14,669 bases of DNA from the UHGV virus genome UHGV-0214741. One strand, written 5' to 3'. Under the pieces are notes generated by a model. The model was not told where the DNA came from, made no database searches, and was given only the letters and a program-made list of their open reading frames with translations. This document shows positions 412 through 14,546 of this stretch, piece after piece (position 1 is the stretch's first letter; each line of letters starts with the position of its first letter). The translations under genes were made by a program, and so were the position numbers. Source of the stretch: a virus.

Positions 412-1659
412 ATGCGAAACATGAGCAGGGCAATTCATAGACTTAGCGACACTCTTTTACGAAAATTAAGCGGATCACCAACCACAAAAAACACCTTTTT
501 TAATGATGGTGGCAACCTTAGCGTAAGGCATTCAACCAATGGCCTGTTAACCTGGTATTTCACTTACAGGGCCGGAACTGGCAGGCAGGTATCACCGGAA
601 CGCCTGAGACTGGGCAACTATCCCGATCTGAGCCTGAAAGCAGCCAGAGAAAAAGCGGCACAGTGTCGCGCCTGGCTGGCGGAGGGGAAAAATCCACGCC
701 ATGAGCTTAATCACACAGTGCAGGAAGCGTTAGCACCTGTAACGGTTAAGGACGCGATCACTTACTGGCTTGAGTCATACGCGAAGGAAAAGCGCACTGA
801 CCACGAATCACTGAAAAGCCGGATCAATAAGCACATAATCAGCCAGATTGGTGCTATGCCGCTGGATAAATGCGAGTTACGCCACTGGCTGGCCTGTTTT
901 GACCAGCTTGCTAAGCGTAATCCGGTATCAGCCGGCTTTTTGTTGCAGGTATGCAAGCAGGCGCTTAAGTACTGCCGTAAACGTCGCTACGCCGTCAGTA
1001 ACGTTCTTGATGATATGGTCGTAGGTGATGTGGGAAAAAAAGCAGAAATAAGCGAGCGAGTGCTAACAAACAAGGAGCTTGGCGAGCTACTCCGCGCACT
1101 GGATGAAAAAATTTTCCCGCCGTACTACAGCGCCTTAATTCGCCTTCTGATTGTCTTTGGATGCCGTACCACTGAGCTAAGACGCTCCGAGGTTCAGGAA
1201 TGGGATTTTAAAGAAATGCTCTGGACTGTGCCGAAAGAACACAGCAAAACGAAGGTAGCAATATTCAGGCCAATACCGGAAGCGATCTTGCCGTTTGTCA
1301 TGAAGCTGGTGGAGAAGAACAGGCACACGGGCTTATTGCTTGGAGAACTGAAAGGGCAATCATCCGTAGCAGAGTACGGAAGAACGGCACACAGACGCAT
1401 TAATCAAGCCCCCTGGTCGTTGCATGACATCCGGCACACATTTACAACCATGCTGAACGATTTAGGCGTGGATCCGCATATTGTCGAGCAGCTTACCGCC
1501 CACCAGATGCCGGGGATGCAACGAGTCTATAACCACTCCCGTTATCTTGATGCAAAACGTGATGCTCTTAATCTATGGGTAGACCGTCTCGAGCTTCTCC
1601 AGAACAATGATGAAAAAATCGTTGTTATGACCCCGCGAATTTACCCCCAAAATTCTTGA
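412..1659 (+). CDS. int: Tyrosine site-specific integrase, P4-type (N-terminal DUF4102-like arm-binding domain plus C-terminal catalytic domain)
   Basis: 415 aa ORF. The N-terminus (LSDTLLRKL...FFNDGGNLSV...GLLTWYFTYR...LRLGNYPDLSLKAAREKA) fits the P4-integrase arm-binding pattern. The C-terminus has HDIRHTF (HxxR box) and RVYNHSRY with the catalytic Tyr. Stop TGA at 1657-1659. Confidence 0.9.
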   Translation: MRNMSRAIHRLSDTLLRKLSGSPTTKNTFFNDGGNLSVRHSTNGLLTWYFTYRAGTGRQVSPERLRLGNYPDLSLKAAREKAAQCRAWLAEGKNPRHELNHTVQEALAPVTVKDAITYWLESYAKEKRTDHESLKSRINKHIISQIGAMPLDKCELRHWLACFDQLAKRNPVSAGFLLQVCKQALKYCRKRRYAVSNVLDDMVVGDVGKKAEISERVLTNKELGELLRALDEKIFPPYYSALIRLLIVFGCRTTELRRSEVQEWDFKEMLWTVPKEHSKTKVAIFRPIPEAILPFVMKLVEKNRHTGLLLGELKGQSSVAEYGRTAHRRINQAPWSLHDIRHTFTTMLNDLGVDPHIVEQLTAHQMPGMQRVYNHSRYLDAKRDALNLWVDRLELLQNNDEKIVVMTPRIYPQNS

Positions 1660-2078
1660 CAAATTACGGCTGTTTTTTCTTTAAGAGATTACAGCCGTGA
1701 ATAAATCGTAGAATATCGGAAAATATCTGCAAATATCTTCGCTTTATATATGTCAACCATCAAAAAATTGGAATGTCTTCTTCTGAACTTTTATTCTCTG
1801 TTTCTTGATTGTTCCAACACTTGATGGTTTATCTATTTGTTTTTAATGAGATAATTCAAGCGTAATGCCAAGTAACGACATTTTTTGTTGCATCGCTTAA
1901 AAACTCGTGACACGATTTTAAACACTAACGAGCTTCTACGAACCTTAGCGAACAAAGCCTTTAGCAAGGTTGTGTTTTTAATTTAAGAGGTGAAAAAAGA
2001 ATCTAAGTAATATCCGATCTCATATATCTACAGCTAAGAGAAAAGTTTATATACGTAATTTTTTATGTAGGTTTCTGT

Positions 2079-2288
2079 ATGCGTGAAATAAATGAAGATC
2101 GCGTAATCCGTGAGGATGAATGTCGTAAGTTAACTGGAGTGTGTCGCACTACACGCTATGAACTGGAGAAAAAAGGGAATTTCCCGTCACGCCGTAATCT
2201 GGGCGGTCGTTCTGTAGGTTGGCTGCTGTCCGAGGTTATGGAATGGGTTAAAAGCCGGGATCGCATTAATTCAGGCAAGGCAGCGTAA
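2079..2288 (+). CDS. alpA: AlpA-family phage transcriptional regulator / excisionase-like DNA-binding protein
   Basis: 69 aa; the segment CRKLTGVCRTTRYELEKKGNFPSRRNLGGRSVGWLLSEVMEWVKSR matches the AlpA (Phage_AlpA) helix-turn-helix pattern. It lies immediately downstream of int, as in P4-like elements and PICIs. Preceded by a roughly 420 bp AT-rich non-coding region. Confidence 0.8.
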   Translation: MREINEDRVIREDECRKLTGVCRTTRYELEKKGNFPSRRNLGGRSVGWLLSEVMEWVKSRDRINSGKAA

Positions 2289-2305
2289 AGGGGAGCATAT
2301 GACAT

Positions 2306-2335
2306 ATAAAACAAAGGCGACCGGGGGCGGTCGCC
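2306..2335 (-). terminator. Candidate rho-independent terminator for the minus-strand small-gene unit
   Basis: Perfect 8 bp stem GGCGACCG / CGGTCGCC with a 4 nt loop at 2316-2335. On the minus strand it is followed by TTTGTTTTAT (complement of 2306-2315). Confidence 0.45.
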
Positions 2336-2402
2336 AATGGATACACACTAAACTTGAACGCATCACCAACAATGCCACATTTGCGGCTGGTGGGCAATGT
2401 GA

Positions 2403-2591
2403 TCAGTCAGATTTGGTTCGTTCCAAGGTTTGCAACGAGAGCTTTTTCCTGTGCTCTTTAAGGAATTTCTCAAGAGCAAAAGCACATGGCGCGAATCTTT
2501 CTGATTCATGCTCTATCTTTCTGCGCCGTCTTTTCCGTGCCGGTGATAATGTTTTGGTCAATTCTTTATCGGTCATTGTGTTGTCCTGCAT
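2403..2591 (-). CDS. Hypothetical small basic protein (about 57-62 aa)
   Basis: ORF downstream of the RHH gene on the minus strand; highly charged (ARKRRRRKIEHESERF). No convincing SD before the first ATG; the second ATG (codon 6, MTDKEL) has AGGA 7 nt upstream. Could be spurious. Confidence 0.3.
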   Translation of the reverse strand: MQDNTMTDKELTKTLSPARKRRRRKIEHESERFAPCAFALEKFLKEHRKKLSLQTLERTKSD

Positions 2592-2633
2592 AGCAATGCG
2601 CCGTAGTTACTCACACCACGGCGCTGGTGATGG

Positions 2634-2813
2634 TTACTCCTGCTCTTTGGCCTTGCGGCGCTGGCGGCGTTTGATCTCGCCTTTAACGGCAGTAACTATA
2701 AATTGCGCCTTGCTTTCACCTTCATCTAAATTTTTTTCTAAGTCTGCAACAACATCATGCGGGAATCTGGCATTTAACTGTTGCGACTTATTATTTGTTG
2801 AACCTGTTGCCAT
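2634..2813 (-). CDS. Ribbon-helix-helix (Arc/MetJ-like) DNA-binding protein, candidate repressor of the replication operon
   Basis: 59 aa starting from the internal ATG at 2813-2811, which has GAGAGGA 8 nt upstream. MATGSTNNKSQQLNARFPHDVVADLEKNLDEGESKAQFIVTAVKGEIKRR fits the RHH beta-strand / helix / helix pattern (compare Arc FNLRWPREVLDLVRKVAEENGRSVNSEIYQRV). Transcribed divergently from the 3004 operon. Confidence 0.55.
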   Translation of the reverse strand: MATGSTNNKSQQLNARFPHDVVADLEKNLDEGESKAQFIVTAVKGEIKRRQRRKAKEQE

Positions 2814-2833
2814 TACTGAATCCTCTCTAAGTT

Positions 2834-2926
2834 GGTGCGATTCAGTATACACAAAAAAAATTTCAGAGAAAGGCTTGAAGTGCGATTCACTTGCTGATAG
2901 GTTAAAAACGAATGGTGCGATGCACC
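2834..2926. promoter_or_regulatory. Divergent promoter/operator region with three GTGCGAT(T/G)CA repeats
   Basis: GGTGCGATTCAG at 2834-2845, AGTGCGATTCAC at 2879-2890, GGTGCGATGCACC at 2914-2926 (the last is a perfect dyad GGTGC-GAT-GCACC). A TATACT -10-like hexamer on the minus strand overlaps the first site. Confidence 0.4.
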
Positions 2927-3003
2927 AAGCAACAACGCCCCGCAGTGGTGGCACACATGCAGGGCGTCTAACCACCAACGATAGCAACAGTATCGAGGCA
3001 GCT

Positions 3004-3207
3004 ATGAGAAATTATACCAGACACCCGCAAGGGCGGGACTCGTACAACCTGAATAAATACATCTGGCGTTTTATCGCCCTGAGCACGGCACAACCGCGCG
3101 TGATTACCATTGAGGCCACCAGCGAACAGGAAGCACGCCAGCAATCCCCGGCTGGCTACGTGATGGTATTCGCCGCCCGTATTCGTCAGGGGGTGTGCCA
3201 TGCCTGA
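3004..3207 (+). CDS. Hypothetical protein, first gene of the replication operon (67 aa)
   Basis: Internal ATG of the 2299-3207 ORF with GAGG 5 nt upstream; the C-terminal 67 aa have normal composition while the upstream 235 codons do not. The stop overlaps the next ATG (ATGCCTGA). Confidence 0.5.
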   Translation: MRNYTRHPQGRDSYNLNKYIWRFIALSTAQPRVITIEATSEQEARQQSPAGYVMVFAARIRQGVCHA

Positions 3208-3520
3208 TATGTCAAATTACCAGTACCTGATTAATCCGCATTTTAACTGTGAGCATGATATTGCTAAAAAGGTTTATTCCGCTGCTGATGGGGCTACTGA
3301 CAATATATCAATGGCTGTTGCGTCAATTGGTAGCCTGATGTGGCATGCGTCAGAAAATGAGGACTATGACGAAAAGGCCATGCGCATTGATATGGGTAAT
3401 ATCGGTTTGTTACTGGCAATGCTTGGGCAGTTTGATATTTCGTTACGGTGCACCATTGAAAATGCCACAGATGCATTAAATGCCATAAAGAAAGCGAATA
3501 CTGATTCAAATCGGGGATAA
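3200..3520 (+). CDS. Hypothetical protein (106 aa)
   Basis: ORF with GGGGG 6 nt upstream of the ATG, translationally coupled to the previous gene. Hand count of one 60-nt line gives about 40 percent G+C, lower than the downstream replication gene. Confidence 0.6.
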   Translation: MPDMSNYQYLINPHFNCEHDIAKKVYSAADGATDNISMAVASIGSLMWHASENEDYDEKAMRIDMGNIGLLLAMLGQFDISLRCTIENATDALNAIKKANTDSNRG

Positions 3521-3526
3521 ATAATC

Positions 3527-3826
3527 ATGAGAACATATTTATCTGGCTTGACTGCCAGCGGTTATGCACACCCCAAAATTATCCCCGGCGCTATTTATCT
3601 GGATAAGAACGGTAACAGAGTAACGGTAAAAGAACTGATGTTTGACCGTGTGTATTTTATTCGTGATGGCTATTCATTTCATAGTTCGCTGAACGTGGAG
3701 ATCTTTATTAGCAGATTCCGGCGGGAAATCCCGACTTCCAGAAATAACCATGTGTCACGTGTGGATGTGGATAAAAAACTGCAGGAACTGAAAAACATGA
3801 TTGCCGCGTGGAGAGAGCCGAAATGA
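3527..3826 (+). CDS. Hypothetical protein (99 aa)
   Basis: ORF with GGGGA 9 nt upstream of the ATG. Its stop TGA (3824-3826) overlaps the replication-protein ATG (3823-3825) as ATGA. Hand-counted lines give about 37-42 percent G+C. Confidence 0.6.
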   Translation: MRTYLSGLTASGYAHPKIIPGAIYLDKNGNRVTVKELMFDRVYFIRDGYSFHSSLNVEIFISRFRREIPTSRNNHVSRVDVDKKLQELKNMIAAWREPK

Positions 3827-5640
3827 AAAAAGCGCCAAATTTAAAACACCAGCCGCGTGACAAAATGACGGAAGTCATCATTTTTGCGGGTAGTGATGCG
3901 TGGGCACATGCGAAGCAGTGGCAGGAACAGGACGGGCGACTGGCTGGCGATAACGTGCCACCTGTCTGGCTTGGAGAGCAACAACTTGCCGAACTGGACA
4001 ACCTGCAAATCGTACCGGACGGACGCTATCGCGTGCGTCTCTACCAGGCGGGGTTATTGCGTCCGGGGCTTGTTAATACCATCGGGCAGAAACTGGCAGC
4101 GGCAGGTGTCAGGGATGCTGATTATTACCCTGAAGGAATGCACAGCCAGAAACGGGAGAACTGGCGCGAATATCTGGAACGTGAACGGGCAGAGCAGGCG
4201 GAAAAGAAAAAGGTAGTTGAACTGCCTGTAAAGAAAAAAGAGCGGGTAAAAGACGATAACGCTTCATCACTGGCGCTTAACCAGATGGGAGCAAGTCAAC
4301 GCGGCGAAGTTCTCCTGGCACATTATGGCGGTGAACTGGCGATTCATGCTGACTCTGACACTGTTCACCATTACAACGGCGTTGTATGGGAGCCAGTACA
4401 GGATAAAGAATTACAGCGAGCTATGGCACAGATTTTCATTGATGCGGAGATCAGCTATTCGCAGAACGCCATTAAATCGGCGGTCGATACCATGAAGTTA
4501 AGTTTGCCTGTTATGGGGAATACAGCCCGTAACCTGATTGGATTCAGTAACGGGGTATTTGATACCAGAACAGGTAATTTTCGGGAGCATAACAAAAACG
4601 ACTGGTTGTTAATTGCCAGTGAATTACCTTTCAGCCCACCAGCAGAGGGGGAAACGCTGGCAACACATGCGCCGAATTTCTGGAAGTGGTTACGCCGTTC
4701 GGTGGCTGAGAATGACCGCAAGGCGGATCGCGTACTGGCTGCATTATTCATGGTGCTGGCGAACCGGTACGACTGGCAGTTATTCATTGAGGTAACAGGT
4801 CCAGGGGGAAGTGGTAAAAGCGTGATGGCGGAGATTTGCACCATGCTGGCGGGTAAGGCCAACACAGTATCGGCAAGCATGAAGGCGCTGGAAGATGCAA
4901 GGGAACGCGCGTTAGTGGTTGGCTTTTCGCTGATTATCATGCCGGATATGACCCGCTACGCTGGTGATGGGGCAGGAATTAAGGCCATTACAGGCGGTGA
5001 CAAGGTGGCAATTGACCCGAAACACAAAGCCCCCTACTCAACGCGTATTCCGGCAGTAGTGCTGGCGGTTAACAATAACGCCATGTCATTCAGTGACCGC
5101 AGCGGGGGGATCTCACGTCGTCGGGTGATATTCAATTTTTCGGAAGTTGTACCGGAGAACGAACGCGATCCAATGCTGGCGGAAAAAATAGAAGGTGAGC
5201 TGGCGGTAGTGATTCGCCATCTGCTTACACGGTTTGCTGACCAGGACGAAGCCAGACGCCTGTTATATGAGCAGCAGAAATCTGAAGAAGCACTGGCGAT
5301 AAAGCGAGAGGGGGATTCGCTGGTGGACTTCTGCGGCTATCTCATGGCGTCGGTAATGTGTGATGGCCTGTTAGTGGGTAATGCTGAAATTGTGCCATTC
5401 AGCCCACGCAGGTATCTCTATCATGCCTATCTGGCTTATATGAGGGCACATGGGTTTGGTAAACCTGTAACACTGACGCGCTTCGGTAAAGATATGCCGG
5501 GGGCAATGGCGGAATATGGCAGGGAGTATATGAAACGGAAAACGAAGCACGGTTTGCGTTCAAACGTGACACTGACGGAGGAATCAGAAGACTGGATGCC
5601 ATCATGTGTATCGGTCACTAATGACGATAGCAAAAATTAA
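3823..5640 (+). CDS. Replication protein, phage/plasmid primase P4-family C-terminal domain with SF3-type NTPase (Walker A GPGGSGKS)
   Basis: The ORF track starts at GTG 3808, but ATG 3823 has GGAGAG upstream and an ATGA overlap with the preceding gene. Walker A VTGPGGSGKSV and a Walker-B-like hhhhPD (LIIMPD) are present. It lies immediately upstream of a TGTTCACC iteron array, as for P4 alpha and its ori. Confidence 0.85.
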   Translation: MKKAPNLKHQPRDKMTEVIIFAGSDAWAHAKQWQEQDGRLAGDNVPPVWLGEQQLAELDNLQIVPDGRYRVRLYQAGLLRPGLVNTIGQKLAAAGVRDADYYPEGMHSQKRENWREYLERERAEQAEKKKVVELPVKKKERVKDDNASSLALNQMGASQRGEVLLAHYGGELAIHADSDTVHHYNGVVWEPVQDKELQRAMAQIFIDAEISYSQNAIKSAVDTMKLSLPVMGNTARNLIGFSNGVFDTRTGNFREHNKNDWLLIASELPFSPPAEGETLATHAPNFWKWLRRSVAENDRKADRVLAALFMVLANRYDWQLFIEVTGPGGSGKSVMAEICTMLAGKANTVSASMKALEDARERALVVGFSLIIMPDMTRYAGDGAGIKAITGGDKVAIDPKHKAPYSTRIPAVVLAVNNNAMSFSDRSGGISRRRVIFNFSEVVPENERDPMLAEKIEGELAVVIRHLLTRFADQDEARRLLYEQQKSEEALAIKREGDSLVDFCGYLMASVMCDGLLVGNAEIVPFSPRRYLYHAYLAYMRAHGFGKPVTLTRFGKDMPGAMAEYGREYMKRKTKHGLRSNVTLTEESEDWMPSCVSVTNDDSKN

Positions 5641-5883: not shown

Positions 5884-5927
5884 GTTAAAACGCAAAAATT
5901 TTAATTTACTGCTGTGAGATAAAGCCT

Positions 5928-6173
5928 ATGACAGCGAAGCACACAAAAAAATCACAATCGCACGCCCTTGATTTGACGGAACACTGGTTAAGGGTGTCGA
6001 TAAAAATCATCGACCGCAACGCCGGGGAAGGATATGCGAAAGCACATCCCGAACTGATTAGCTCATTCATGACAACGGCAGCTGCAAACTTTGCCACGCT
6101 GACAGAACGGGAGATTGCCGAAGCGGAACAGGTGACAACCATCAACGTTAAAACCGGAGAGCAGACAGCATGA
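5928..6173 (+). CDS. Hypothetical protein (81 aa)
   Basis: ORF directly after the ori; its stop overlaps the next ATG (ATGA at 6170-6173). No recognisable motif. Confidence 0.5.
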   Translation: MTAKHTKKSQSHALDLTEHWLRVSIKIIDRNAGEGYAKAHPELISSFMTTAAANFATLTEREIAEAEQVTTINVKTGEQTA

Positions 6174-6595
6174 CAGCACAGATAGCGGCTTACGGGCGGC
6201 TGGTGGCTGACCCGCAGTTAAAGACCACCAGCAAGGGTACACAAATGACGATGGCTAGTATGGCGGTCCCCCTTCCGTGCAGCCAGGCAGATGACGGAAC
6301 GGCGATGATGTGGTTATCCGTCCTGGCGTTTGGCAGACAGGCCGACGCACTGGCAAAACACCACAAAGGCGAACTGGTGAGCGTGGCGGGTAACATGCAG
6401 GTAAGCCAGTGGACAGGCCAGAACGGCGAAACGCGGCAGGGCTGGCAGGTTATCGCAGACAGCGTGATCAGTGCGCGAACAGCGCGACCGGGCGGCAAAA
6501 AAGGCCAGCAGGGGCAGGCCACTGACGCACTGAACAGGGCAAAACAGCAGACGGGTCAGCACGATGATCCGTACGGGGACAACATACCGTTTTAG
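6170..6595 (+). CDS. Single-stranded DNA-binding protein (SSB-like, OB fold, acidic DIPF-type C-terminal tip)
   Basis: 141 aa. GRLVADPQL ... WLSVLAFGRQADALAKHHKGELVSVAGNMQVSQWTGQNGETRQGWQVIAD parallels the E. coli SSB OB-fold pattern. It has a Gly/Gln-rich linker and the C-terminus DDPYGDNIPF (compare the SSB tail DDDIPF). Confidence 0.75.
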   Translation: MTAQIAAYGRLVADPQLKTTSKGTQMTMASMAVPLPCSQADDGTAMMWLSVLAFGRQADALAKHHKGELVSVAGNMQVSQWTGQNGETRQGWQVIADSVISARTARPGGKKGQQGQATDALNRAKQQTGQHDDPYGDNIPF

Positions 6596-6860
6596 CGACA
6601 ACAGAGGGGACATTCCAGTGACATTTGAAGAAGTCCAGCAACATAAAAAGTTTCATGATTTTGATGATCTGGAAACCATGACAGCAAAAAAATATCGCCG
6701 TCTGCTTTCTTCCGATGCGTTGTTTGTTGTGGATCATCATGATTTTCTGCGTAGCTCACTGACCGGGGAAATTTTGGCAACCAACCGTGAGCAGGTGGAA
6801 GCGATGATCGAATATCTGTGGAAAATAAGGCGCAGAATGCGAGATCCCGTGAAACGGTAA
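6564..6860 (+). CDS. Hypothetical protein; true start probably GTG 6618 (about 80 aa)
   Basis: The ORF-track ATG at 6564 overlaps the SSB 3' end. An in-frame GTG at 6618 has AGAGGGGA 8 nt upstream. It ends at TAA 6858-6860, immediately before a terminator. Confidence 0.5.
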   Translation: MIRTGTTYRFSDNRGDIPVTFEEVQQHKKFHDFDDLETMTAKKYRRLLSSDALFVVDHHDFLRSSLTGEILATNREQVEAMIEYLWKIRRRMRDPVKR

Positions 6861-6869
6861 AATAATAAA

Positions 6870-6897
6870 GGCCTGGTAAAATCCAGGCCATTTTTTT
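6870..6897. terminator. Bidirectional rho-independent terminator between convergent genes
   Basis: Stem GGCCTGG (6870-6876), loop TAAAAT, stem CCAGGCC (6883-6889), then TTTTTTT (6891-6897) on the plus strand. The minus strand reads the same hairpin followed by TTTATTATT. Confidence 0.7.
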
Positions 6898-7402
6898 ACA
6901 GTAAGCCTATTAGGGCACTTGCGCCAGCCCCAACAATGCTGGCAACGGTACTGTTTTCCAGTAACTGCTTTAATACTGATTTGGCTTGTACATCCCCCGA
7001 TTTAGCGACTTTTTCAACCAGTTCAGTGATGCTGATGTTTACCAGCATATGGTTATGCTCACCTATCTGCACTTGATCACCACTAATTGAACCAATGTTA
7101 AATGTATTACTTTTAGTTGGCGTCATATGTTCATTTCCCGTGATATTTTCAATATAGAGAGTCAACATATTTGGATGATTGGTTCCCTGTCTGCGGGTTC
7201 CATTGGGAAGCAACTTCATATCTATAATTTTTAGATTTATCTCGTTTTTACCGACACGCTGGATAATGTGTTGACCAATAGTTACTTCCGGTTCATTTGT
7301 ATATGGAATTAATACCTTGTTTTCTTTTGCGTTTCTTTTACCTCTGAATGATTCGCCATTAATTATGAAAGTATCAGGATATACCATTGCGCTTAAATTC
7401 AT
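6896..7402 (-). CDS. Accessory (cargo) gene: 168 aa hypothetical protein with a C-terminal hydrophobic Gly/Ala-rich tail, candidate membrane-anchored effector
   Basis: Only sizeable gene on the opposite strand. It has its own SD (AAGGA 6 nt before the ATG at 7402-7400) and its own terminator. Hand-counted G+C is roughly 32-43 percent over most of the gene versus about 58 percent in the adjacent capsid gene. C-terminus is STVASIVGAGASALIGLL. No motif I recognise in the N-terminal 145 aa. Confidence 0.65.
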   Translation of the reverse strand: MNLSAMVYPDTFIINGESFRGKRNAKENKVLIPYTNEPEVTIGQHIIQRVGKNEINLKIIDMKLLPNGTRRQGTNHPNMLTLYIENITGNEHMTPTKSNTFNIGSISGDQVQIGEHNHMLVNISITELVEKVAKSGDVQAKSVLKQLLENSTVASIVGAGASALIGLL

Positions 7403-7467
7403 GATGCGTCCTTTGTTGTAGTCAGAGACAGCAATAATAGGCCATGGTTTACTTCTTTTGTAAATTA

Positions 7468-7498
7468 TTTGTTCGTGTTCTTTCGTGGTTGTTCGGTC
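7468..7498. repeat. Internal third copy of the TTGTTCG repeat array, in the divergent promoter region between the cargo gene and the capsid operon
   Basis: TTTGTTCGTG (7468-7477), TTCTTTCGTGG (7478-7488), TTGTTCGGTC (7489-7498) at about 10 bp phasing; compare 14401-14431 and 331-370. Candidate minus-strand -35 TTTACA (7464-7459) and -10 TATTAT (7439-7434) lie immediately beside it. Confidence 0.5.
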
Positions 7499-7688
7499 TG
7501 ACTGACAGGTGTTTACATACTGATTTTTATGTATATGTTGGAGCGTGGCACTCAGACGTGAGCCGCCACAATGCCGCCTGACCCCCTGCGCGATGCCGGG
7601 TTGATCTGCGAGATGCCGAGAGTGTCGGGCGGCGCTCCCCCCGTGTTGGTTTCACGTCCTGAATCTTAACCAATACGAGAAAACCTTC

Positions 7689-8858
7689 ATGAAGAAATTA
7701 ATCGAACTCCGCCAGCAAAAAAACGCCCTGAAAAACCAGATGCGATCCCTGCTGGAAAAAGCCGACAGTGAAAACCGTAGTCTGAACGCTGAAGAAGGCA
7801 AACAGTTTGATGAACTGCGTGCAAAAGCTGATGCCCTCGACACAGAAATTTCCCGCCTCGAGTCTGTGGCTGATGAAGAACGCAGCAAGCCAGGAACGGG
7901 CATCCAGAAATTATCATCTGATGAATTGCGTAACTACATCGTAACCGGAGATGTGCGATCACTGTCCACCAGCACTGACAGCGGCAGGGATGGCGGATAT
8001 ACCGTAATTCCTGAGCTTGATCGCGAAGTCATGCGCCAGCTACAGGATGACAGTGTTATGCGCGTGATCGCGACCGTGAAGACCGCAAAATCAAATGAGT
8101 TTCAGAAACTGGTTTCCACTGGCGGCGCAACTGTAGGACGAGGCACAGAAGGCAGCGCACGCAGTGAAACCAACACCCCGAAAATTGAACGCGTAACCAT
8201 CAAGTTGAATCCGATCTACGCCTACCCGAAAACCACGCAGGAAATCCTGGATTTTTCAGAGGTGGATATTCTGGGCTGGTTATCCTCCGAAATTGCCGAC
8301 ACGTTCGCCAGCACCGAAGAGGATGATTTTGTTAATGGCGACGGTAACGGCAAGCCGAAAGGCTTCATGGCTTACACCCGTGCGGCGACCAGTGACAAAA
8401 CCCGCGCTTTTGGCACCATTGAAAAAATAGTAGCGGCAAGTGGAACCGCCATTACAGCGGACGAACTGATCGACATTCTCTACAAGCTGAAAGCGAAATA
8501 CCGCAAAAATGCCGTCTGGGTGATGAACTCGGGCACGGCAGGGACACTACAGAAGCTGAAAAATGAGAACGGCGATTATATCTGGCGCGACAGCCTTAAA
8601 GAAGGTGCGCCGGATATGTTGCTTGGTCGTCCTGTTTACTGCCTGGAGTCCATGCCGGACATCGGCGCAGGAAAAGCACCGCTAGCGGTTGGCGATTTCA
8701 GTCGTGGTTATTTCATCGTTGATCATGTAACAGGGATTCGCACCCGACCGGACAACATTACTGAACCCGGATTCTACAAGGTCCACACGGATAAATATCT
8801 GGGCGGTGGTGTGGTGGATTCAAACGCCATCAAAATTCTGGAAATGAAAGCTGGCTAG
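7689..8858 (+). CDS. Major capsid protein, HK97-type, with an N-terminal coiled-coil (scaffold-like delta) region
   Basis: 389 aa. The N-terminal roughly 70 aa are strongly helical and charged (LIELRQQKNALKNQMRSLLEKADSENRSLNAEEGKQFDELRAKADALDTEISRLE), followed by a body typical of HK97-family capsid proteins. Followed by a prohead protease and portal. Confidence 0.85.
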   Translation: MKKLIELRQQKNALKNQMRSLLEKADSENRSLNAEEGKQFDELRAKADALDTEISRLESVADEERSKPGTGIQKLSSDELRNYIVTGDVRSLSTSTDSGRDGGYTVIPELDREVMRQLQDDSVMRVIATVKTAKSNEFQKLVSTGGATVGRGTEGSARSETNTPKIERVTIKLNPIYAYPKTTQEILDFSEVDILGWLSSEIADTFASTEEDDFVNGDGNGKPKGFMAYTRAATSDKTRAFGTIEKIVAASGTAITADELIDILYKLKAKYRKNAVWVMNSGTAGTLQKLKNENGDYIWRDSLKEGAPDMLLGRPVYCLESMPDIGAGKAPLAVGDFSRGYFIVDHVTGIRTRPDNITEPGFYKVHTDKYLGGGVVDSNAIKILEMKAG

Positions 8859-8870
8859 TCATGAGTAAGG

Positions 8871-8892
8871 AGGAGGCTGCGGCCTCCTTTTT
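8871..8892 (+). terminator. Intra-operon rho-independent terminator/attenuator after the capsid gene
   Basis: AGGAGGC / GCCTCCT stem (8871-8877 / 8882-8888) with TGCG loop, followed by a T-run through 8892. It sits 13 nt after the capsid stop and before the protease SD (GGAG 8902-8905). Confidence 0.6.
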
Positions 8893-8912
8893 CAGCTTTA
8901 TGGAGTACACCG

Positions 8913-9473
8913 ATGAAAAACACCGATTTTGAAATCCGCACATCTGAACTGACCGCCAGCAATAAAAAGCTGGTGGGGTATGCCGTTCGCTGGAACAGCC
9001 TTTCAGAAATTATCTGGGACGAATTCCGCGAACAGTTCACGCCGGGGGCTTTTGCTGACTATCTGGCGACGGGTAATGATGTGCGCTGCCTGTATGAGCA
9101 TGACTATACCCAACTGCTGGGGCGCACCAAATCCGGCACTCTGGTACTGACTGAGGATAACACCGGGTTACGTTTTGAACTGACACCGCCGGATACCCAG
9201 CTTGGAAAAGATGTGCTTACGCTGGTGGAGCGTGGCGACATTACAGGAATGAGCTTTGGTTTTCGCGCATTATGCGAGGAGTGGAGTATCGCGCAAAAAC
9301 CGTATCTGCGTACCGTAACCGCCGCTGAACTCCGTGAAATCACAATAACGTCGATGCCTGCTTATCCAGAATCTGGCGTGGAGATTGCCCACCGTTCGTT
9401 GTTTGCACAGCACCCTGAATTACGTCCGACAGGAAATAATCGTCATCGCTGGTCTGAGCTGGCGGGGTTGTGA
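8913..9473 (+). CDS. Prohead maturation protease, HK97 family
   Basis: 186 aa; GYAVRWNS ... GAFADYL ... VRCLYEHD ... GLRFEL ... GDITGMSFGF matches the HK97 prohead protease pattern as I recall it. Confidence 0.85.
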   Translation: MKNTDFEIRTSELTASNKKLVGYAVRWNSLSEIIWDEFREQFTPGAFADYLATGNDVRCLYEHDYTQLLGRTKSGTLVLTEDNTGLRFELTPPDTQLGKDVLTLVERGDITGMSFGFRALCEEWSIAQKPYLRTVTAAELREITITSMPAYPESGVEIAHRSLFAQHPELRPTGNNRHRWSELAGL

Positions 9474-9474
9474 T

Positions 9475-10689
9475 ATGTGGTGGCCTTTTAGTCGTAAAAA
9501 AAGCGAGCAGCGTAACCTGTCCATTGATGATTTTCTGGCGCTGTCCGGCGTACCGAATACCGGATCCGGAGAATATGTTTCTGCCGGGACGGCTGAATCA
9601 TTGCCTGCAGTGATGAATGCGGTTTCTGTCATCGCTGAGGCGGTGGCCACGATGCCGTGTTATCTGTATCTGGTACGTAATGACAAGGGCAGGGAGGCGC
9701 GGGAATGGCTGGACAGTCACCCAGTAGATATTCTGCTGAATGAGCAGCCTAATTCGTGCCAGACACCTTACCAGTTTAAACGCACAATGATGCGTCACTG
9801 CCTGCTAAACGGTAACGCCTATGCGGTTATTGAGTGGGGGCAGGACGGGCAGCCAAAATCACTTCATCCTTATGCGCCGGGGTGTGTTGTACCGGAACGC
9901 ACAGGCGCACACAAATACCGCTATACCATCACCGAACCCTGTACAGGAACGGTGCGCACGTATTTACAGGAAGAAGTTTTGCATCTCCGCTATGCCTCGG
10001 ATGATGGCTTTCTGGGGCGTTCCCCCGTCACGATTTGCCGTGAGGCGCTGGGGCTTGGCCTTGCTCAACAGCGTCACGGAGCCAGCATTATGAAAGATGG
10101 CATGATGGCGGCAGGGATTATCACGTCAGGCGAATGGCTGGACGGCGTGAAAGGTAAACAGGCATTGGATGCTCTGGAACGCTACAAGGGGGCGAAAAAT
10201 GCCGGAAAAACGCCAATCCTTGAAGGGGGCATGGATTACAGGCAACTGGGAATGAGTAACCAGGATGCGGAATGGCTGGCCTCCCGTCGCTTCTCCATTG
10301 AAGACATCGCCCGCATGTTCAACGTATCGCCTATTTTTCTGCAGGAATACAGCAACAGCACCTACAGCAATTTCAGCGAGGCAAGCCGCGCGTTTCTGAC
10401 CATGACAATGCGCCCGTGGCTGGCGAACTTCGAACAGCAAATCAAGGCCGCTTTGCTGGTGGCTTCTCCCGTACCTGGTACCCGTTATCTGGTTGAGTTT
10501 GATTCAGCCGATTTATTACGCGCCACACCCACCGAACGTTATGCCACGTATGAGAAAGGGATTAAGAACGGGATCATGAATCCGAACGAAGCCCGTGAGC
10601 GTGAGGGTATGCCGCCGCGTGAAGGTGGTGATGAGTTCAGCCAGGCATGGAAACAGACTGTGGAAATTAAAGGGAGAAAAGATGAGTGA
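9475..10689 (+). CDS. Portal protein, HK97 family
   Basis: The ORF track starts at 9385 inside the protease gene. ATG 9475 (MWWPFSRKK...) begins 1 nt after the protease stop and is the more likely start. About 404 aa, with length and position typical of HK97-type portals. Confidence 0.85.
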   Translation: MWWPFSRKKSEQRNLSIDDFLALSGVPNTGSGEYVSAGTAESLPAVMNAVSVIAEAVATMPCYLYLVRNDKGREAREWLDSHPVDILLNEQPNSCQTPYQFKRTMMRHCLLNGNAYAVIEWGQDGQPKSLHPYAPGCVVPERTGAHKYRYTITEPCTGTVRTYLQEEVLHLRYASDDGFLGRSPVTICREALGLGLAQQRHGASIMKDGMMAAGIITSGEWLDGVKGKQALDALERYKGAKNAGKTPILEGGMDYRQLGMSNQDAEWLASRRFSIEDIARMFNVSPIFLQEYSNSTYSNFSEASRAFLTMTMRPWLANFEQQIKAALLVASPVPGTRYLVEFDSADLLRATPTERYATYEKGIKNGIMNPNEAREREGMPPREGGDEFSQAWKQTVEIKGRKDE

Positions 10690-10984
10690 AGCCAGAATTA
10701 CACCTGATGAAGTCAGGGCACATCTTCGACTTGATGATGATTTATCCGGTGAAGGCGAACTTCTGAAAATGTATACCGATGCGGCGCTGGAAGCCTGCCA
10801 GAAGCATATCGGGAAACGTTTTGAAGACGGGCTGGAATTTACCCCGGCAATGCGTGTTGGTTGCCTGATGTACATCGCTTTCCTGTACGAGAACCGGGAA
10901 GCGGTTTCACCAGTGGAGCACTCGGAACTGCCTATGGCTATTTCTGCGCTCTGGTCAGTTTATCGTGACGTAGGGGTGTACTGA
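10682..10984 (+). CDS. Head-tail connector (gp6-like head-tail adaptor) protein
   Basis: The ORF track begins at 10595, but ATG 10682 has GGGAG 5 nt upstream and overlaps the portal stop. MSEARITPDEVRAHLRLDDD...GELLKMYTDAALEACQKHIGKR fits the gp6-like connector pattern. About 100 aa. Confidence 0.7.
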   Translation: MSEARITPDEVRAHLRLDDDLSGEGELLKMYTDAALEACQKHIGKRFEDGLEFTPAMRVGCLMYIAFLYENREAVSPVEHSELPMAISALWSVYRDVGVY

Positions 10985-11424
10985 TGCCGTGGCAACCATT
11001 AAGGCGATGCACTGAGCCTGGCTGTAATAAGCGCGTGAAGTCCGGCAAGTGTGAAGAGCACAGGCGGGCTGCATGGCGTGCAGAGGATGCCAGACGGGGA
11101 CACCGCCGCGCGCGCGGGTATTCCCGACAGTGGGACAAATACCGCGCCCTGTACCTGAGCAAAAACCCGTTATGCGTGCGTTGTCTGGCTAAGGGGATTT
11201 ATACGCCAGCTCTTGTGGTGGATCACATCATTCCCATCAATGGCGGCGGTGATGTTCTCTTCTGGCCTGAGTGGAATCACCAGGCATTGTGCCAGACGTG
11301 CCACAACCGTAAGACGACACGAGAAGATCCAGCCACGAAAGCAAACCGTAAAGCGGGCATGTATCGCGAGCAGGAAGAACGGGCGGCACACCGTAACGAC
11401 TGGATGTATGGCGATGATGACTGA
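10984..11424 (+). CDS. HNH endonuclease (packaging-associated, terminase partner)
   Basis: 146 aa; Cys-rich N-terminus (CTEPGCNKRVKSGKCEEH) and HNH core VVDHIIPINGGGD ... WNHQALCQTCHNRKT. Its ATG overlaps the connector stop (TGATG). Position immediately upstream of terS is the usual one for HNH-dependent cos packaging. Confidence 0.85.
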   Translation: MPWQPLRRCTEPGCNKRVKSGKCEEHRRAAWRAEDARRGHRRARGYSRQWDKYRALYLSKNPLCVRCLAKGIYTPALVVDHIIPINGGGDVLFWPEWNHQALCQTCHNRKTTREDPATKANRKAGMYREQEERAAHRNDWMYGDDD

Positions 11425-11600
11425 ACAGGAGCAAACCAGGCTGATACGTGGACTGATAAGGCAGCGTGACACATGGAAGACACAGGAGACAGAGCACAAA
11501 GCCAACAGGACAGGGCGCACAAAACGCACCACAGCGAAGCGATTAACCGACCGTGACCGCGAGGTCATGGAATGTTTTCGCAATCGCTGGTGAGGCCGTC

Positions 11601-11700
11601 AGAGGGGGTGGGGGTGGTTTTCAGGACGAAACCGTCCCTGCCGGACACCGACCGCCCCCTCAAATTTTTGTGCACGGTAATTTTTTTGAAAATAATTGGG
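11601..11700. other. Candidate cos / terminase recognition region: GC-rich dyad element followed by an AT-rich tract, directly upstream of terS
   Basis: GAGGGGGTGG (11602-11611) pairs with CCGCCCCCTC (11652-11661) with one mismatch; nested GGACG-AAAC-CGTCC hairpin (11624-11637); then AAATTTTTG...TTTTTTTGAAAATAATT. Functional assignment is by position only. Confidence 0.3.
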
Positions 11701-11712
11701 CGAAAAAAGAAC

Positions 11713-12069
11713 ATGGCAAGACCACCAAAAGCCCCCGCTTACCTGGATGAAATCGCGGTCAGGCAGTGGAAGGAAAAATCGCGCCAGCTTTCCGGGCGGG
11801 AAGACCTTACCCCCGCCGACTGGAGCAATCTGGAACTGTATTGCGTTAACTACTCTATATACCGCAAAGCCGTCGAAGACCTTGCGACGCGCGGGTTCAG
11901 CATTGTTAACAGTCAGGGCAGCGAGAGCAGAAACCCCGCACTGAGCGCAAAGGCTGACGCAGAAAGAATAATGATCAAAATGGCTTCTTTGCTGGGTTTT
12001 GACCCGGTAAGCCGTCGCAGAAATCCACCGGAAACAGAGGAAGAGGACGAACTTGACCGCCTGGCATGA
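11713..12069 (+). CDS. terS: Terminase small subunit, P27-family-like
   Basis: The ORF track starts at 11572, but the recognisable protein begins at ATG 11713 (MARPPKAPAYLDEIAVRQWKEK...), a typical P27-type TerS N-terminus. About 118 aa. Confidence 0.8.
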   Translation: MARPPKAPAYLDEIAVRQWKEKSRQLSGREDLTPADWSNLELYCVNYSIYRKAVEDLATRGFSIVNSQGSESRNPALSAKADAERIMIKMASLLGFDPVSRRRNPPETEEEDELDRLA

Positions 12070-13714
12070 GTACGCAGAAGGCGTAAAAAACGGCAAAATT
12101 ACGGCCTGTAAACGACTGAAACAGGCTGTTAAACGGTATTTTTCTGACCTTGAAAACTCCCTTTACACGTTCGATCCGGAGGTCGTGGAGCGGTTTATTG
12201 CCTTTTCCCGGGTGTGCCCGCACGTAAAAGGCGCAATGCGCGGTAGCCCCATTGAACTTGAGCCGTGGCAGCAGTTCGCCTTTGCCTGCATCCTGGGATT
12301 TAAGGTTAAGGCCACCGGACGGCGCAAATACACCAGCGCATTCATTGAAGTACCGCGAAAAAATGCCAAATCCACGGTCGCCGCTATCCTGGCTAACTGG
12401 TTTCTGGTTATGGAAAACGGGCAGCAGGATATTTACACCGCCGCCGTGAGTCGTGATCAGGCGCGGATCGTGTTTGATGATGCGCGTCAGATGTGCCTTT
12501 TATCCCGACCGTTACGAAAGCGGGTAAATATTCAGGCGCACAAGGTGATACACCCGAAAACCAACAGCCTGTTAAAGCCACTGGCAGCAAAAGCGGCAAC
12601 CATTGAGGGGACAAACCCGAGTCTTGCCATTGTGGATGAATATCACCTGCACCCAGACAACGGGGTTTATTCCGCACTTGAACTGGGGATGGGGGCGCGT
12701 CCGGAGGGGCTGTTATTTGCCATCACCACATCGGGGAGCAACGTTGTTTCAGCCTGTAAACAACACTACGACTATTGCTGCCAGATACTGGATGGTGAAG
12801 AGGTGAACGAATCCATGTTCGTACTGATTTACGAGCTGGATGATGAAAGCGAGGTTGACGATCCGGCGATGTGGATAAAGGCGAATCCCAATATCGATGT
12901 TTCCGTCGATCGTGAAAAACTGGCCTCAACCATCCAGAAAGCGCGGGGTATTCCGTCGCAGTGGGTGGAAATGCTCACCAAGCGATTCAATATCTGGTGT
13001 CAGGGGGCTACGCCGTGGATGGGTAACGGTGCATGGGCGGAGTGCGCCGGAACGTTCGCTGAGGCGGATTTATACGGGCAGGAGTGCTATGCGGGGCTGG
13101 ACTTATCATCAACCAGCGATATTTCCAGCGTGTGCTATGCCTTTCCGGTCGGTAAAAAGATTATGCTGGTTTCACGTCACTATCTACCGGAATTTCAGCT
13201 ACAGAACCCTGCCAATAAAAACCGCGCCATCTATCGCCAGTGGGCAAAGGCGGGCTGGATACGCACAACACCGGGTGACTGCATTGATTATGACCGTATC
13301 CGTGATGACATCATGGCGGATGCAGAGAATTTCAATATCAGGCTGGTGGGTTTCGATACATGGAACGCCACGCACCTGAGGACGCAGCTACAGGGAGCGG
13401 GATTTGAGGTGGAGCCGTTCCCGCAAACGTACCTTCGTTTTAGTCCGGCGGCGAAATCGTTCGAAGTTTTTGTTAACCGGAAGGTGATTGTTCATCGTGG
13501 TGATCCGGTGCTGGCCTGGTCAATGAGTAATGTTGTGATGCAGAGTGACGCGAACGCCAATATCAAGCCGAACAAGAAAAAATCATCCAATAAGATAGAC
13601 CCGAGCGTTGCGGCGCTGATGGCGTTTGGCACATTCCAGGCTGAGCATGAGGAATTTGCATTTGATATGAGCGACAGCCAGAAAGAGCGACTTGCGGCAT
13701 TTGATGGGGTATGA
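12053..13714 (+). CDS. terL: Terminase large subunit (Terminase_1-like ATPase/nuclease)
   Basis: 553 aa. The ORF opens with TTG at 12053, preceded by AGAGGA 5 nt upstream; there is no in-frame ATG nearby. It overlaps the terS 3' end. Size and position fit TerL; VPRKNAKST is a Walker-A-like motif. The exact start is uncertain. Confidence 0.85.
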   Translation: MTAWHEYAEGVKNGKITACKRLKQAVKRYFSDLENSLYTFDPEVVERFIAFSRVCPHVKGAMRGSPIELEPWQQFAFACILGFKVKATGRRKYTSAFIEVPRKNAKSTVAAILANWFLVMENGQQDIYTAAVSRDQARIVFDDARQMCLLSRPLRKRVNIQAHKVIHPKTNSLLKPLAAKAATIEGTNPSLAIVDEYHLHPDNGVYSALELGMGARPEGLLFAITTSGSNVVSACKQHYDYCCQILDGEEVNESMFVLIYELDDESEVDDPAMWIKANPNIDVSVDREKLASTIQKARGIPSQWVEMLTKRFNIWCQGATPWMGNGAWAECAGTFAEADLYGQECYAGLDLSSTSDISSVCYAFPVGKKIMLVSRHYLPEFQLQNPANKNRAIYRQWAKAGWIRTTPGDCIDYDRIRDDIMADAENFNIRLVGFDTWNATHLRTQLQGAGFEVEPFPQTYLRFSPAAKSFEVFVNRKVIVHRGDPVLAWSMSNVVMQSDANANIKPNKKKSSNKIDPSVAALMAFGTFQAEHEEFAFDMSDSQKERLAAFDGV

Positions 13715-14001
13715 CGAGAATGACTGAAACTGATCTACTAAAAATAATTCGCCGCATTACCGGAATCAGTCAGCAGCCTGACGAACAGGCTACACAGCCG
13801 GACAGCGTGATAGCCGAAAATTACGCGCGTGTGGTGGCTGAGGTAATGCGCCGTGACGGTATTGAGCTTAACGGCGTGGATATGCGCAACATACGAACCA
13901 GAGTTCTTGAGTTGCTGGCATACCGTCGCCGTTCTCAACAACGGAGGGAGAGCGCGAAAAATACTTACCAGTGGAGGAAGCCGGAGCACTTACGGCGGTA
14001 A
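13711..14001 (+). CDS. Hypothetical protein (96 aa), translationally coupled to terL
   Basis: Its ATG overlaps the terL stop (ATGA at 13711-13714). Arg-rich C-terminus. Last gene of the packaging operon; function unknown. Confidence 0.5.
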   Translation: MTRMTETDLLKIIRRITGISQQPDEQATQPDSVIAENYARVVAEVMRRDGIELNGVDMRNIRTRVLELLAYRRRSQQRRESAKNTYQWRKPEHLRR

Positions 14002-14020
14002 CTGGTTGATATTACCGAAA

Positions 14021-14226
14021 GTGCAAAAATGCACTTAGCAACTGGTGGCGAGTTGCAGATCTGCAACTCGACTATGAAACTACCCGTAGTTTGGGTAGTA
14101 AGAGTAACACCCAGATTTTGGGGCTTACTCGCGATACCCAAATAAAGGGTATCGGTGTAAGAAATATCGTTTCTCATATGTGAGCACCGAGGGCGGAATT
14201 CCGCCTTCGGTTACTTATTGTGCTCA
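14021..14226. repeat. Non-coding cluster of perfect and near-perfect palindromes / stem-loops
   Basis: GTGCA-AAAA-TGCAC (14021-14034); perfect 18 bp palindrome AGTTGCAGATCTGCAACT (14051-14068); ACTACCC-N7-GGGTAGT (14079-14099); GATACCC-N7-GGGTATC (14133-14153); perfect 14 bp GGCGGAATTCCGCC (14192-14205) inside a 24 bp near-palindrome (14187-14210), itself flanked by TGAGCAC (14181-14187) and GTGCTCA (14220-14226). Confidence 0.5.
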
Positions 14227-14400
14227 TGCACAGGGAGGGGCGGGTCAAATCTCTGTACCCTGACGTCTTCCGGACTGCCAGCCCCATCGATTTTTTATAC
14301 CCGCGAAAAATGAAAAACGCTTCACGCTGGTGGGCCTGATGCCGATAACTGGTTTCATGACTGATAGCCGGAAAATGATAACGATTAAAGCGTGTTGATC

Positions 14401-14461: not shown

Positions 14462-14529
14462 ACTGTTTTTGACGAGCTTATTGTTTGCAACTCAATGAAA
14501 AATAAAGGCTAATAAGCCAAATGCTATAA

Positions 14530-14546
14530 ATGATAGTTATCTATCA
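14530..14546. repeat. Candidate attR core (ATGATAGTTATCTATCA)
   Basis: Direct repeat of 237-253 with one mismatch; a perfect dyad TGATAG-TTAT-CTATCA. Confidence 0.45.

Follow-up and report, generated by a model that had tools for sequence, protein, structure and literature searches.

Which strand carries the information where a small regulatory gene lies antisense inside a long open reading frame (ORF)? The question is raised by the 14,669 nucleotides of UHGV virus genome UHGV-0214741 analysed here (the window), which hold the gene set of an Escherichia coli capsid-forming phage-inducible chromosomal island (cf-PICI). In the interval from alpA to the Icd-like gene that heads the rightward operon, the minus strand encodes a 59-aa ribbon-helix-helix (RHH) protein and the plus strand carries a 302-codon ORF across the same DNA. 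A sequence-only reading had described the RHH gene with a good Shine-Dalgarno (SD) sequence, a terminator at 2306-2335, three GTGCGAT(T/G)CA sites of which one is a perfect dyad, and the 302-codon ORF with an SD-like run before its ATG and about 13 Cys. All of these are present: the terminator lies on the minus strand inside the plus ORF, there are exactly three sites, the third sits in a dyad and the second forms a dyad as well. The same reading took the ORF to look spurious and its first 235 codons to be non-coding, and the strand assignment to be beyond settlement from sequence alone. Its view of the ORF is contradicted by comparison between genomes: in most loci of two samples (60 and 57) the frame is kept open, spacer indels occur in multiples of three, and translation of the ORF starts in coupling with the preceding gene. 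The strand question appears to be answered by 'both strands'.

We read the region as the regulatory switch of a Gram-negative PICI laid out on both strands, in which a translated bridge would carry alpA-driven transcription antisense through the repressor cassette and into the replication operon, and give this reading a probability of roughly 0.6. The comparative set consisted of 60 loci, made up of 4 further E. coli loci and 56 from GTDB species representatives in many Enterobacterales genera. A second, independent sample of 80 IMG/VR loci (L062-L141, E. coli) was retrieved via the protein of a second leftward ORF, the partner ORF of Table 1, and gave 57 evaluable distinct loci.

A plus-strand frame selected to stay open

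The openness of each antisense frame around the RHH gene was measured in every locus. One frame, which shares its wobble positions with the RHH gene, is open over the whole of that gene and over the promoter/operator spacer, and in most loci it runs on through the Icd-like gene and 100-500 nt leftward, for a total of 200-380 codons. Over the RHH gene this frame contains 1 stop in the 60 loci, compared with 251 and 188 in frames 2 and 3, and is stop-free in 59/60. Over the 190-nt spacer the corresponding counts are 22, 288 and 347 (stop-free in 54/60), and the 150 nt on the left side of the RHH gene give 30, 179 and 220 (stop-free in 47/60). The spacer is AT-rich non-coding promoter DNA, in which the other plus frames have about 5 stops each per locus. 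Two loci, L010 and L056, have a far longer open plus frame (568 and 695 codons) that extends past the first rightward gene, out of frame with it in L010.

Because a frame with shared wobble positions is known to be stop-poor, nulls were run in which the synonymous codons of the RHH genes were resampled or permuted. These yield 40-49 antisense stops and 25-29 open loci, against the 1 stop and 59 open loci observed. Among the codons that precede Gln or His in the RHH genes, 0/301 end in T, compared with 23 % of other codons; a T-ending codon before a Gln or His codon creates an antisense TGA.

Length variation and the position of the start follow the same frame. In 48/56 loci the distance from the RHH ATG to the Icd-like ATG takes one of ten values (184, 187, ... 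211 nt), each of which leaves a remainder of 1 when divided by 3. In 44/58 loci the first ATG of the ORF touches or overlaps the stop codon that ends the plus-strand gene before it, usually with a GGAG-type SD, at offsets of -1, -4, -8, -11, -14 or +8 to +14 from that stop. In the window the ATG lies 10 nt past the alpA stop with GGGGAG 4 nt before it, and the arrangement of alpA stop, purine run coding for RKG, ATG and a 'KTKA' peptide motif recurs in about 16 loci from several genera. At the other end the Icd-like stop overlaps the next ATG (3200; overlap ATGCCTGA), and stop-to-start overlaps go on to the primase. Given the coupled start and these downstream overlaps, the plus strand is translatable without a gap from alpA to the primase, and no plus-strand terminator motif was found between alpA and the Icd-like gene. 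An open frame, indels in threes and a conserved start with an SD were thus all found for 2299-3003 of the plus strand. In the IMG/VR sample the frame reaches the Icd-like leader, or goes beyond it, without a stop in 51/57 loci and is broken earlier in 6.

The peptide itself shows little that is conserved. The ORF has 13 Cys, 12 of them within the first 235 codons. Within groups of loci of the same operator specificity, substitutions silent for the RHH protein that alter the plus-frame amino acid occur at 2.66 relative to expectation, compared with 2.45 for doubly synonymous changes; omega is about 1 in the overlap, and no purifying selection on plus-frame amino acids was found there. RHH-non-synonymous changes are depleted in the same groups (0.42-0.99), and by this measure purifying selection acts on the RHH gene as on any ordinary gene. 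The comparison of synonymous sites on each strand, proposed in the sequence-only reading, thus gave a divided answer: the RHH amino acids are constrained, and of the plus frame only the openness. Its impression that the plus-strand peptide looks meaningless is borne out. On the left side of the RHH gene, no alignment between genera is possible for the plus-frame peptides except at the 'KTKA' motif, which reads x-K-T-K-A, always stands 2-4 codons past the ORF ATG and is simply the conserved leftward terminator read in antisense. That terminator, an 8-pair stem (7 G-C) followed by TTTGTTTTAT and lacking a T-run on the plus strand, is kept across genera just past alpA (L015-L030, L054, L056 and L142 besides the window). 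These substitution patterns indicate that the plus ORF is selected for openness and translation, not for peptide sequence.

In 42/60 loci of the first sample and 38/57 of the second, the ORF and the Icd-like gene share one frame. The main alternative is therefore that the ORF encodes a functional long Icd-like isoform, the fusion product being what is selected, whose extension would serve as, for example, a degron, tether or regulator, with a short isoform made from the RHH-controlled promoter. The spacer lengths congruent to 1 mod 3 would suit such a protein, as would the long forms held in databases: NCBI records give the same 302-aa product as 'Icd-like protein' on 446 contigs, and phrog_29966 (188 aa) is another long form with the Icd-like part at its C-terminus. 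However, besides an omega of about 1 in the overlap, the only conserved residues of the extension are those that the underlying DNA elements impose, and the ORF of 13/57 E. coli variants and 3 GTDB loci terminates within the leader, 20-40 nt short of the Icd-like ATG, its stop being either the TAA in TCTAACC or the TAG in CGATAGC. In 3 further loci it continues out of frame, so that the ORF is found in three different frame relations to the Icd-like gene. We therefore consider the isoform unlikely. Since some variants stop short of the Icd-like ATG, the fusion seems dispensable and translation up to the leader is what is kept; the most conserved property would then be translation as far as the leader, not the fusion protein.

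The long ORF also explains the conflicting annotation of the Icd-like gene. In a genome that is 99.9 % identical over 2000-3400, RefSeq annotates the two minus-strand genes and, of the long ORF, only the 67-aa gene at 3004-3207; pipelines give 67, 88, 116 or 302 aa, or plus-strand 'pseudogene' pieces. PGAP fragments labelled 'Icd-like protein, pseudogene' occur in L002 (1561-1840), L004 (1385-1864) and L005 (1307-1754).

The leader up to which translation is conserved lies between the third putative operator (O3, Table 1) and the Icd-like ATG, with its second hairpin abutting the SD. Among 32 diverse sequences, 14 of its 17 pairs show compensatory changes, and 89.5 % of cells are paired, compared with 25-45 % when the 3' partners are slid; 0/500 shuffles reach the observed value. 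The leader is better conserved than the flanking genes. It matched no Rfam family, and no second copy or complement of TCTAACCACCAAC, as a possible antisense target, was found in the window. A C4, CI or isrK-type RNA upstream of the Icd-like gene was also considered and set aside, Rfam giving nothing at gathering score for the window and nothing relevant at E<=10 for 2200-3300. Ribosomes in the long ORF would unfold the leader, and transcripts begun at the rightward promoter would fold it.

The RHH protein and its putative operators

The RHH protein passes the NCBIfam model NF041551 (YlcI/YnfO; 63.3 bits against a cut-off of 30, E=1.5e-17, residues 9-50) and matches phrog_949 (E=3.5e-24). It has no Pfam family at E<=0.1, matched no curated RHH model, and found no PDB sequence match either as a single sequence or as a profile. 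An AlphaFold monomer built on a 42-sequence alignment shows an extended segment (1-18), a helix (19-30), a G-E-S turn and a second helix (35-58) at a moderate mean predicted local distance difference test score (pLDDT 68.8). The topology of beta-strand, helix and helix falls within about 45 residues, and with moderate confidence the predicted layout is that of an RHH monomer taken from its dimer. Structural matches are headed by the RHH antitoxins TacA, ParD, CopA and MazE9. A model from the single sequence was all-helical and uninformative, and the alignment-based model was used instead. Against Arc, a local BLASTP match covers the beta-strand and helix A at E=6e-4 and aligns KSQQLNARFPHDVV with KMPQFNLRWPREVL of Arc.

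Some RHH homologues are 100-111 aa long and carry an insertion of about 42 residues, predicted to be helical, between helix B and a conserved basic tail (L003 at 1852-2157, L004, L034, L038, L047, L050, L051, L055-L057); the antisense frame is open across the insertion too. No functional paper on the YlcI/YnfO family was found in the literature. The K-12 namesake ylcI (L143, 6252-6446) shares with the window gene the NCBIfam model (DUF3950; cryptic prophages DLP12 and Qin) and the character of a small minus-strand gene in a mobile element. It differs in diverging from nohD across the cos region of prophage DLP12, which is not a regulatory region, and K-12 YlcI is 23 % identical to the window protein over 31 residues only. 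As a guide to function it was dropped on account of the other context and the low identity.

Downstream of the RHH gene the sequence-only reading had proposed a partner ORF, which is present in both its 57-aa and 62-aa forms but is not part of the conserved module. It matches phrog_21027 (E=1.9e-14) and no model in Pfam or NCBIfam, hence no toxin family. By tblastn it occurs in E. coli-type loci only and is missing in 55/60 loci and in the O157:H7 PICI. Its substitutions lean to purifying selection in its own frame; with 37 events only, this is suggestive at best. On this distribution it is best taken as an accessory gene that does not look like a toxin.

The motif GTGCGATKCA has exactly 3 matches in the 14.7 kb (2835-2844, 2880-2889 and 2915-2924), compared with 0.07 expected from shuffles, and 0/200 shuffles reach 3. 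The second site is a dyad, AAGTG-CGATT-CACTT, as is the third. A minus-strand match to a terminator pattern at 2927..2913 is the O3 dyad itself and was not taken as a terminator, since the equivalent hairpin elsewhere often lacks a T-run. In all compared loci the RHH gene faces the Icd-like gene over about 184-216 bp, and the sites lie on what are presumably two promoters. Just upstream of the RHH gene, CAGTATAC reads on the minus strand as TATACT, the presumed -10 of the leftward promoter, which a simple promoter scan does not report because it lacks a good -35. The presumed rightward promoter has a weak -10 in the window, 17 bp past its -35, and better hexamers (TAAAGT, TATAGT, TAAATT) at the same position in L002-L005.

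Three GTG-N5-CA sites recur in the 60 loci at fixed positions relative to the conserved -10 and -35. The first abuts the leftward -10, the second begins at the last base of the rightward -35, and the third lies about 35 bp beyond the second, at about +4..+14, often inverted or in a hairpin. The three cores of any one locus match each other to within 0-1 mismatch; from locus to locus they change along with the RHH beta-strand, which gives about 15 types. Thus QQLNARF is found with GTGCGATTCA, QMTTVRI with GTGTAT(G/T)TCA, QS(L/V/I)T(A/V)R(I/V) with GTGTAAG(A/C)CA, QALKARV and QSLKSRV with GTGGGCCACA, LQVSVRL with GTGGTGTTCA, QLFTVRV with GTGTGT(A/T)TCA and KKLEARV with GTGGCTGACA. The core is shared in 105/105 locus pairs with a similar beta-strand, compared with 59/885 dissimilar pairs. 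Mutual information with the 5-bp core is highest at residues 12, 14 and 17, and Arg16 is invariant beside the invariant GTG/CAC. Alternate residues 12 and 14 together with Arg16 fit the pattern expected of an RHH ribbon in the major groove.

The sites might instead be read by another protein, such as AlpA, the Icd-like protein or a helper-phage factor, with the RHH protein serving in partition, excision or packaging. The place of K-12 ylcI beside cos and nohD, away from a regulatory region, and the label 'transcriptional repressor' on phrog_6196, which covers the Icd-like protein, would agree with such a division of roles. However, the core follows neither candidate: the Icd-like proteins, products of the first rightward gene, show no co-variation with it (4/19 similar pairs share a core; rho -0.08), AlpA proteins 97-98 % identical occur with three different cores in the window, L002 and L003, and L003 and L004 have the same operators and different AlpA proteins. 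Set against the 105/105 pairs, the information at residues 12 and 14 and the invariant Arg16, another reader seems very improbable. Three separate sites that change in concert are difficult to account for unless one protein reads them all, and for that role the RHH ribbon is the obvious candidate. Because the three sites lie on conserved promoter elements and their core co-varies with the beta-strand, it is very probable that the RHH protein represses, in a sequence-specific manner, both the rightward promoter (O2, O3) and its own (O1). The sequence-only proposal of an RHH repressor that faces a divergent early operon across its operators is strengthened by the predicted topology, the conserved positions and the co-varying core.

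Table 1. Features of the switch region and neighbouring genes in the window
Feature	Position	Strand	Remarks
Tyrosine integrase	412-1659	+	
alpA, 69 aa	2079-2288	+	Pfam Phage_AlpA E=2.9e-16; RefSeq helix-turn-helix transcriptional regulator; gene before long ORF
SD-like GGGGAG of long ORF	2290..2295	+	between alpA stop (2286-2288) and ATG 2299
Long ORF, 302 codons	2299..3207	+	codons 1-235 antisense to partner ORF, RHH gene and promoter/operator region; codons 236-302 are the Icd-like protein
Intrinsic-terminator motif of leftward unit	stem 2335..2316, T-run 2315..2306	-	within codons 3-13 of plus ORF
Partner ORF, 57 aa (62 aa from ATG 2591), basic (ARKRRRRK)	2576->2403	-	RefSeq hypothetical protein, 57-aa form
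RHH gene, 59 aa, MATGSTNNKSQQLNARFPHDVVADLEKNL...	2813->2634	-	candidate repressor and specificity determinant; RefSeq 'YlcI/YnfO family protein'
SD GAGAGGA of RHH gene	2827-2821	-	read from the sequence
Putative operator O1, GTG-CGATT-CAG	2835..2845	.	overlaps last -10 base and start region of leftward promoter
Presumed -10 of leftward (RHH) promoter, TATACT	2849-2844	-	CAGTATAC at same place in nearly all 60 loci
Presumed -35 of rightward promoter, TTGAAG	2875..2880	+	TTGA(A/C)(G/A) 61 nt from RHH ATG in almost every locus
Putative operator O2, GTG-CGATT-CAC	2880..2890	.	overlaps -35 and spacer of rightward promoter
Presumed -10 of rightward promoter, TAGGTT	2898..2903	+	weak match; 17 bp past -35
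Putative operator O3, in dyad TGGTGC-GAT-GCACCA	2913..2927	.	about +4..+14 of rightward transcript
Structured leader	2936..2995	+	hairpin 1 2936-2966; invariant TCTAACCACCAAC 2967-2979; hairpin 2 2979-2995; SD GAGG 2995-2998
Icd-like gene, 67 aa	3004-3207	+	first gene of rightward operon; in frame with long ORF; annotated in RefSeq
106-aa gene, then DUF4222 gene	3' of Icd-like gene	+	
D5-type primase	3808-5640	+	
SSB, major capsid, maturation protease, portal, HNH endonuclease, small and large terminase (terS, terL)	3' of primase	+	

A proposed two-state switch

In Gram-negative PICIs no repressor has been identified and a global repressor is not evident, the only known regulator being the activator AlpA (PMC6092414). 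Published work shows that AlpA activates the promoter of its own gene, that reporter expression from the gene following alpA depends on it, and that it is needed for induction (PMC6092414; 10.1101/2022.09.08.507074); in cf-PICIs both induction and transfer depend on the helper phage and AlpA (10.1101/2022.09.08.507074).

The leftward unit of the window would run from the -10 at 2849-2844 through the RHH gene and the accessory 57-aa gene to the terminator at 2335-2306. The RHH protein most likely binds the three 11-bp GTG-N5-CA(C/G) sites, with beta-strand residues 12, 14 and 17 setting the specificity for N5. O1, placed on the protein's own promoter, would provide autoregulation, and O2 and O3, on the rightward -35/spacer and start region, would repress the operon for the Icd-like protein, replication and packaging. 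In the quiescent state, RHH protein made from the leftward promoter would sit on O1-O3 and the rightward promoter would be shut. In the induced state, the helper phage would turn on alpA, and transcripts from the alpA promoter would continue rightward, meeting no plus-strand terminator motif in their path, as the T-run of the leftward terminator is on the other strand only. Untranslated and antisense RNA is normally removed by Rho-dependent termination; this RNA, translated from ATG 2299, would escape it. Read-through of this kind would collide with and occlude the RHH promoter, make antisense RNA to the RHH message and sweep the operators, and it would bring ribosomes into the structured leader and the replication operon. 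The result would be a switch with two states, RHH on or AlpA on.

In its full form, the model takes unbroken translation to be the only selected property of the bridge, across which AlpA-driven RNA polymerase, shielded from Rho by ribosomes, would cross the repressor gene, its promoter and the operators, silencing and displacing the repressor; Gram-negative PICIs would then be under a hitherto unrecognised bistable switch of two nested antisense genes, with at least 15 exchangeable RHH/operator immunity types. To this complete version we would give somewhat less than even odds, and it is put forward tentatively.

The anatomy of the locus, the co-variation and the selection for an open frame are established by the comparison. 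Several points weigh against the step from there to the switch. Its functional steps, namely DNA binding, repression, read-through and a role for Rho, are all drawn from comparative sequence. The promoter hexamers are weak, go unreported by a consensus scan and are proposed from their conservation. The plus strand of 2400-2900 shows a slight C excess only, and a Rho target is for that reason not obvious. The loci share descent, so that counts of loci exceed the number of independent events, and co-inheritance contributes to the association of RHH protein and operators, since gene and sites are physically adjacent. In about 10 % of the loci the frame is broken, perhaps through decay of the copy or an error of assembly. 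The frequency with which the ORF is in frame with the Icd-like gene could mean that the fusion protein matters.

That the RHH/operator module is real and the plus ORF upstream of 3004 a chance 'shadow' is a further reading, and one that several observations invite: the peptide is rich in Cys, Ser and Leu, it matches no Pfam family, it is unconserved outside the overlap and under no purifying selection inside it, a wobble-sharing antisense frame is the one most apt to stay open, and the RefSeq annotation is limited to the 67-aa gene. It is strongly disfavoured all the same, as wobble-aware nulls still expect 40-49 stops in the 60 RHH genes where 1 was seen, the frame is open in 54/60 loci over a spacer with about 5 stops in each other frame, length changes in that spacer are multiples of three, and the ORF starts in coupling with the gene upstream. 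A type II toxin-antitoxin or addiction pair of the RHH and 57-aa genes that stabilises the island, suggested by the RHH antitoxins among the top structural matches and by the common terminator of the two co-directional genes, is rejected because the partner is not conserved, and it is opposed as well by the want of a toxin family for the partner in Pfam or NCBIfam and by sites on the promoter of the divergent operon in addition to that of the RHH gene.

Known systems and the island

The likely switch has parts in common with several known systems. The immI region of phage P22 has the RHH repressors Mnt and Arc, divergent promoters (Pant and Pmnt) and operators over both. Here too a small RHH gene diverges from an early operon with operators that overlap both promoters, and the beta-strand Q-x-N-x-R-(F/W)-P resembles the Q-F-N-L-R-W-P of Arc. 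The differences are that homology is not detectable beyond about 24 residues, that three separate 11-bp sites stand in place of one 21-bp operator, that the repressor gene and promoters lie antisense inside a translated ORF, an arrangement not described for immI, and that the element is a satellite and not a phage.

Translation-dependent escape from Rho has been described for icd/ant of P1 and kil/eta of P4. As in the immunity regions of P1/P7 (immI, with c4 RNA, icd and ant) and P4 (where kil/eta translation and CI RNA control Rho-dependent termination), the first gene of the window operon is Icd-like, and translation across the immunity region would decide the transcription of downstream genes. 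Unlike those systems, the window has no C4, CI or isrK-type RNA by Rfam, its candidate immunity factor is a protein, and the translated ORF is antisense to the gene of that protein. A promoter activated by a regulator that transcribes antisense through the gene of an opposing regulator is also familiar from lambda PRE, which runs through cro, and from pR/pL of coliphage 186. Their antisense segments, however, are not known to be a conserved translated ORF or to span the opposing promoter and operators.

Stl and Rpr of Gram-positive PICIs, among them the Staphylococcus aureus pathogenicity islands (SaPIs), are likewise encoded on the replication-module side of int and diverge from the operon for replication, with the presumed role of keeping the island silent until a helper phage is active (PMC6092414). 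The fold is unrelated, as Stl proteins are large helix-turn-helix (HTH) repressors without homology to the RHH protein, and induction of Gram-negative PICIs needs the activator AlpA and not an anti-repressor; published work points to activation of alpA, not to a helper-phage protein that would bind a repressor directly (PMC6092414). A likeness in function to the master repressors of PICIs is plausible by analogy. With the cf-PICI EcCIEDL933 and the classical EcCICFT073 the window shares the order int-alpA-...-primase-...-capsid/packaging, and both of those islands require alpA for induction; their published descriptions do not mention a minus-strand RHH gene, operators or a long ORF (10.1101/2022.09.08.507074; PMC6092414).

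In the literature we found no functional work on this RHH/operator module, nor a description of a repressor gene, promoter and operators antisense within an ORF conserved only for its translatability. As an immunity cassette the module appears to be of a familiar kind; for its nesting in such an ORF no precedent was found.

Family and profile searches of the window proteins matched the gene set of the cf-PICI family (bioRxiv 10.1101/2022.09.08.507074), with all of the listed genes on the plus strand and the head and packaging set of a cf-PICI complete, and by gene content the island belongs there. The Icd-like protein (3004-3204) passes NCBIfam NF033153 (host cell division inhibitor) at 70.1 bits against a cut-off of 25. 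Pfam gave no family for the RHH, partner, long-ORF or Icd-like protein. No tail genes were seen in the window, which ends at 14669, perhaps short of the end of the element. Head-tail connectors had no specific identification, and a 96-aa ORF at 13711-13998 matches only PHROGs of unknown function. The only other sizeable minus-strand gene of the element (6896-7402, 168 aa, phrog_5789, function unknown) lies between the SSB and capsid genes and may be cargo.

Positions 2000-3400 are 99.9 % identical to several complete E. coli genomes, and part of 2289-3010 is matched in 2028 of 5426 complete E. coli genomes. The switch module is present across many Enterobacterales genera, and a classical O157:H7 PICI contains the same switch. 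The module was confirmed in the O157:H7 strain TX 376-2 (L142) and in ATCC 25922 (L004). In one genome that is 99.9 % identical over 2000-3400 (L001, 15900-19700) the late module is a different one, limited to capsid, decoration protein, HTH protein and terS. Positions 5900-14669 of the window encode capsid, protease, portal, HNH, terS and terL, so that one switch is joined to different packaging modules.

To the question of how Gram-negative PICIs are kept silent, this locus offers a candidate repressor, mapped putative operators and a readable specificity code. A reading frame that appears to be preserved for translation and not for content, spanning an opposite gene with its promoter and operators, is a clean natural case of antisense overlap. 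If the read-through model is true, it shows how a divergent control cassette can be placed within an operon by a mobile element and leave the coupling of transcription and translation intact.

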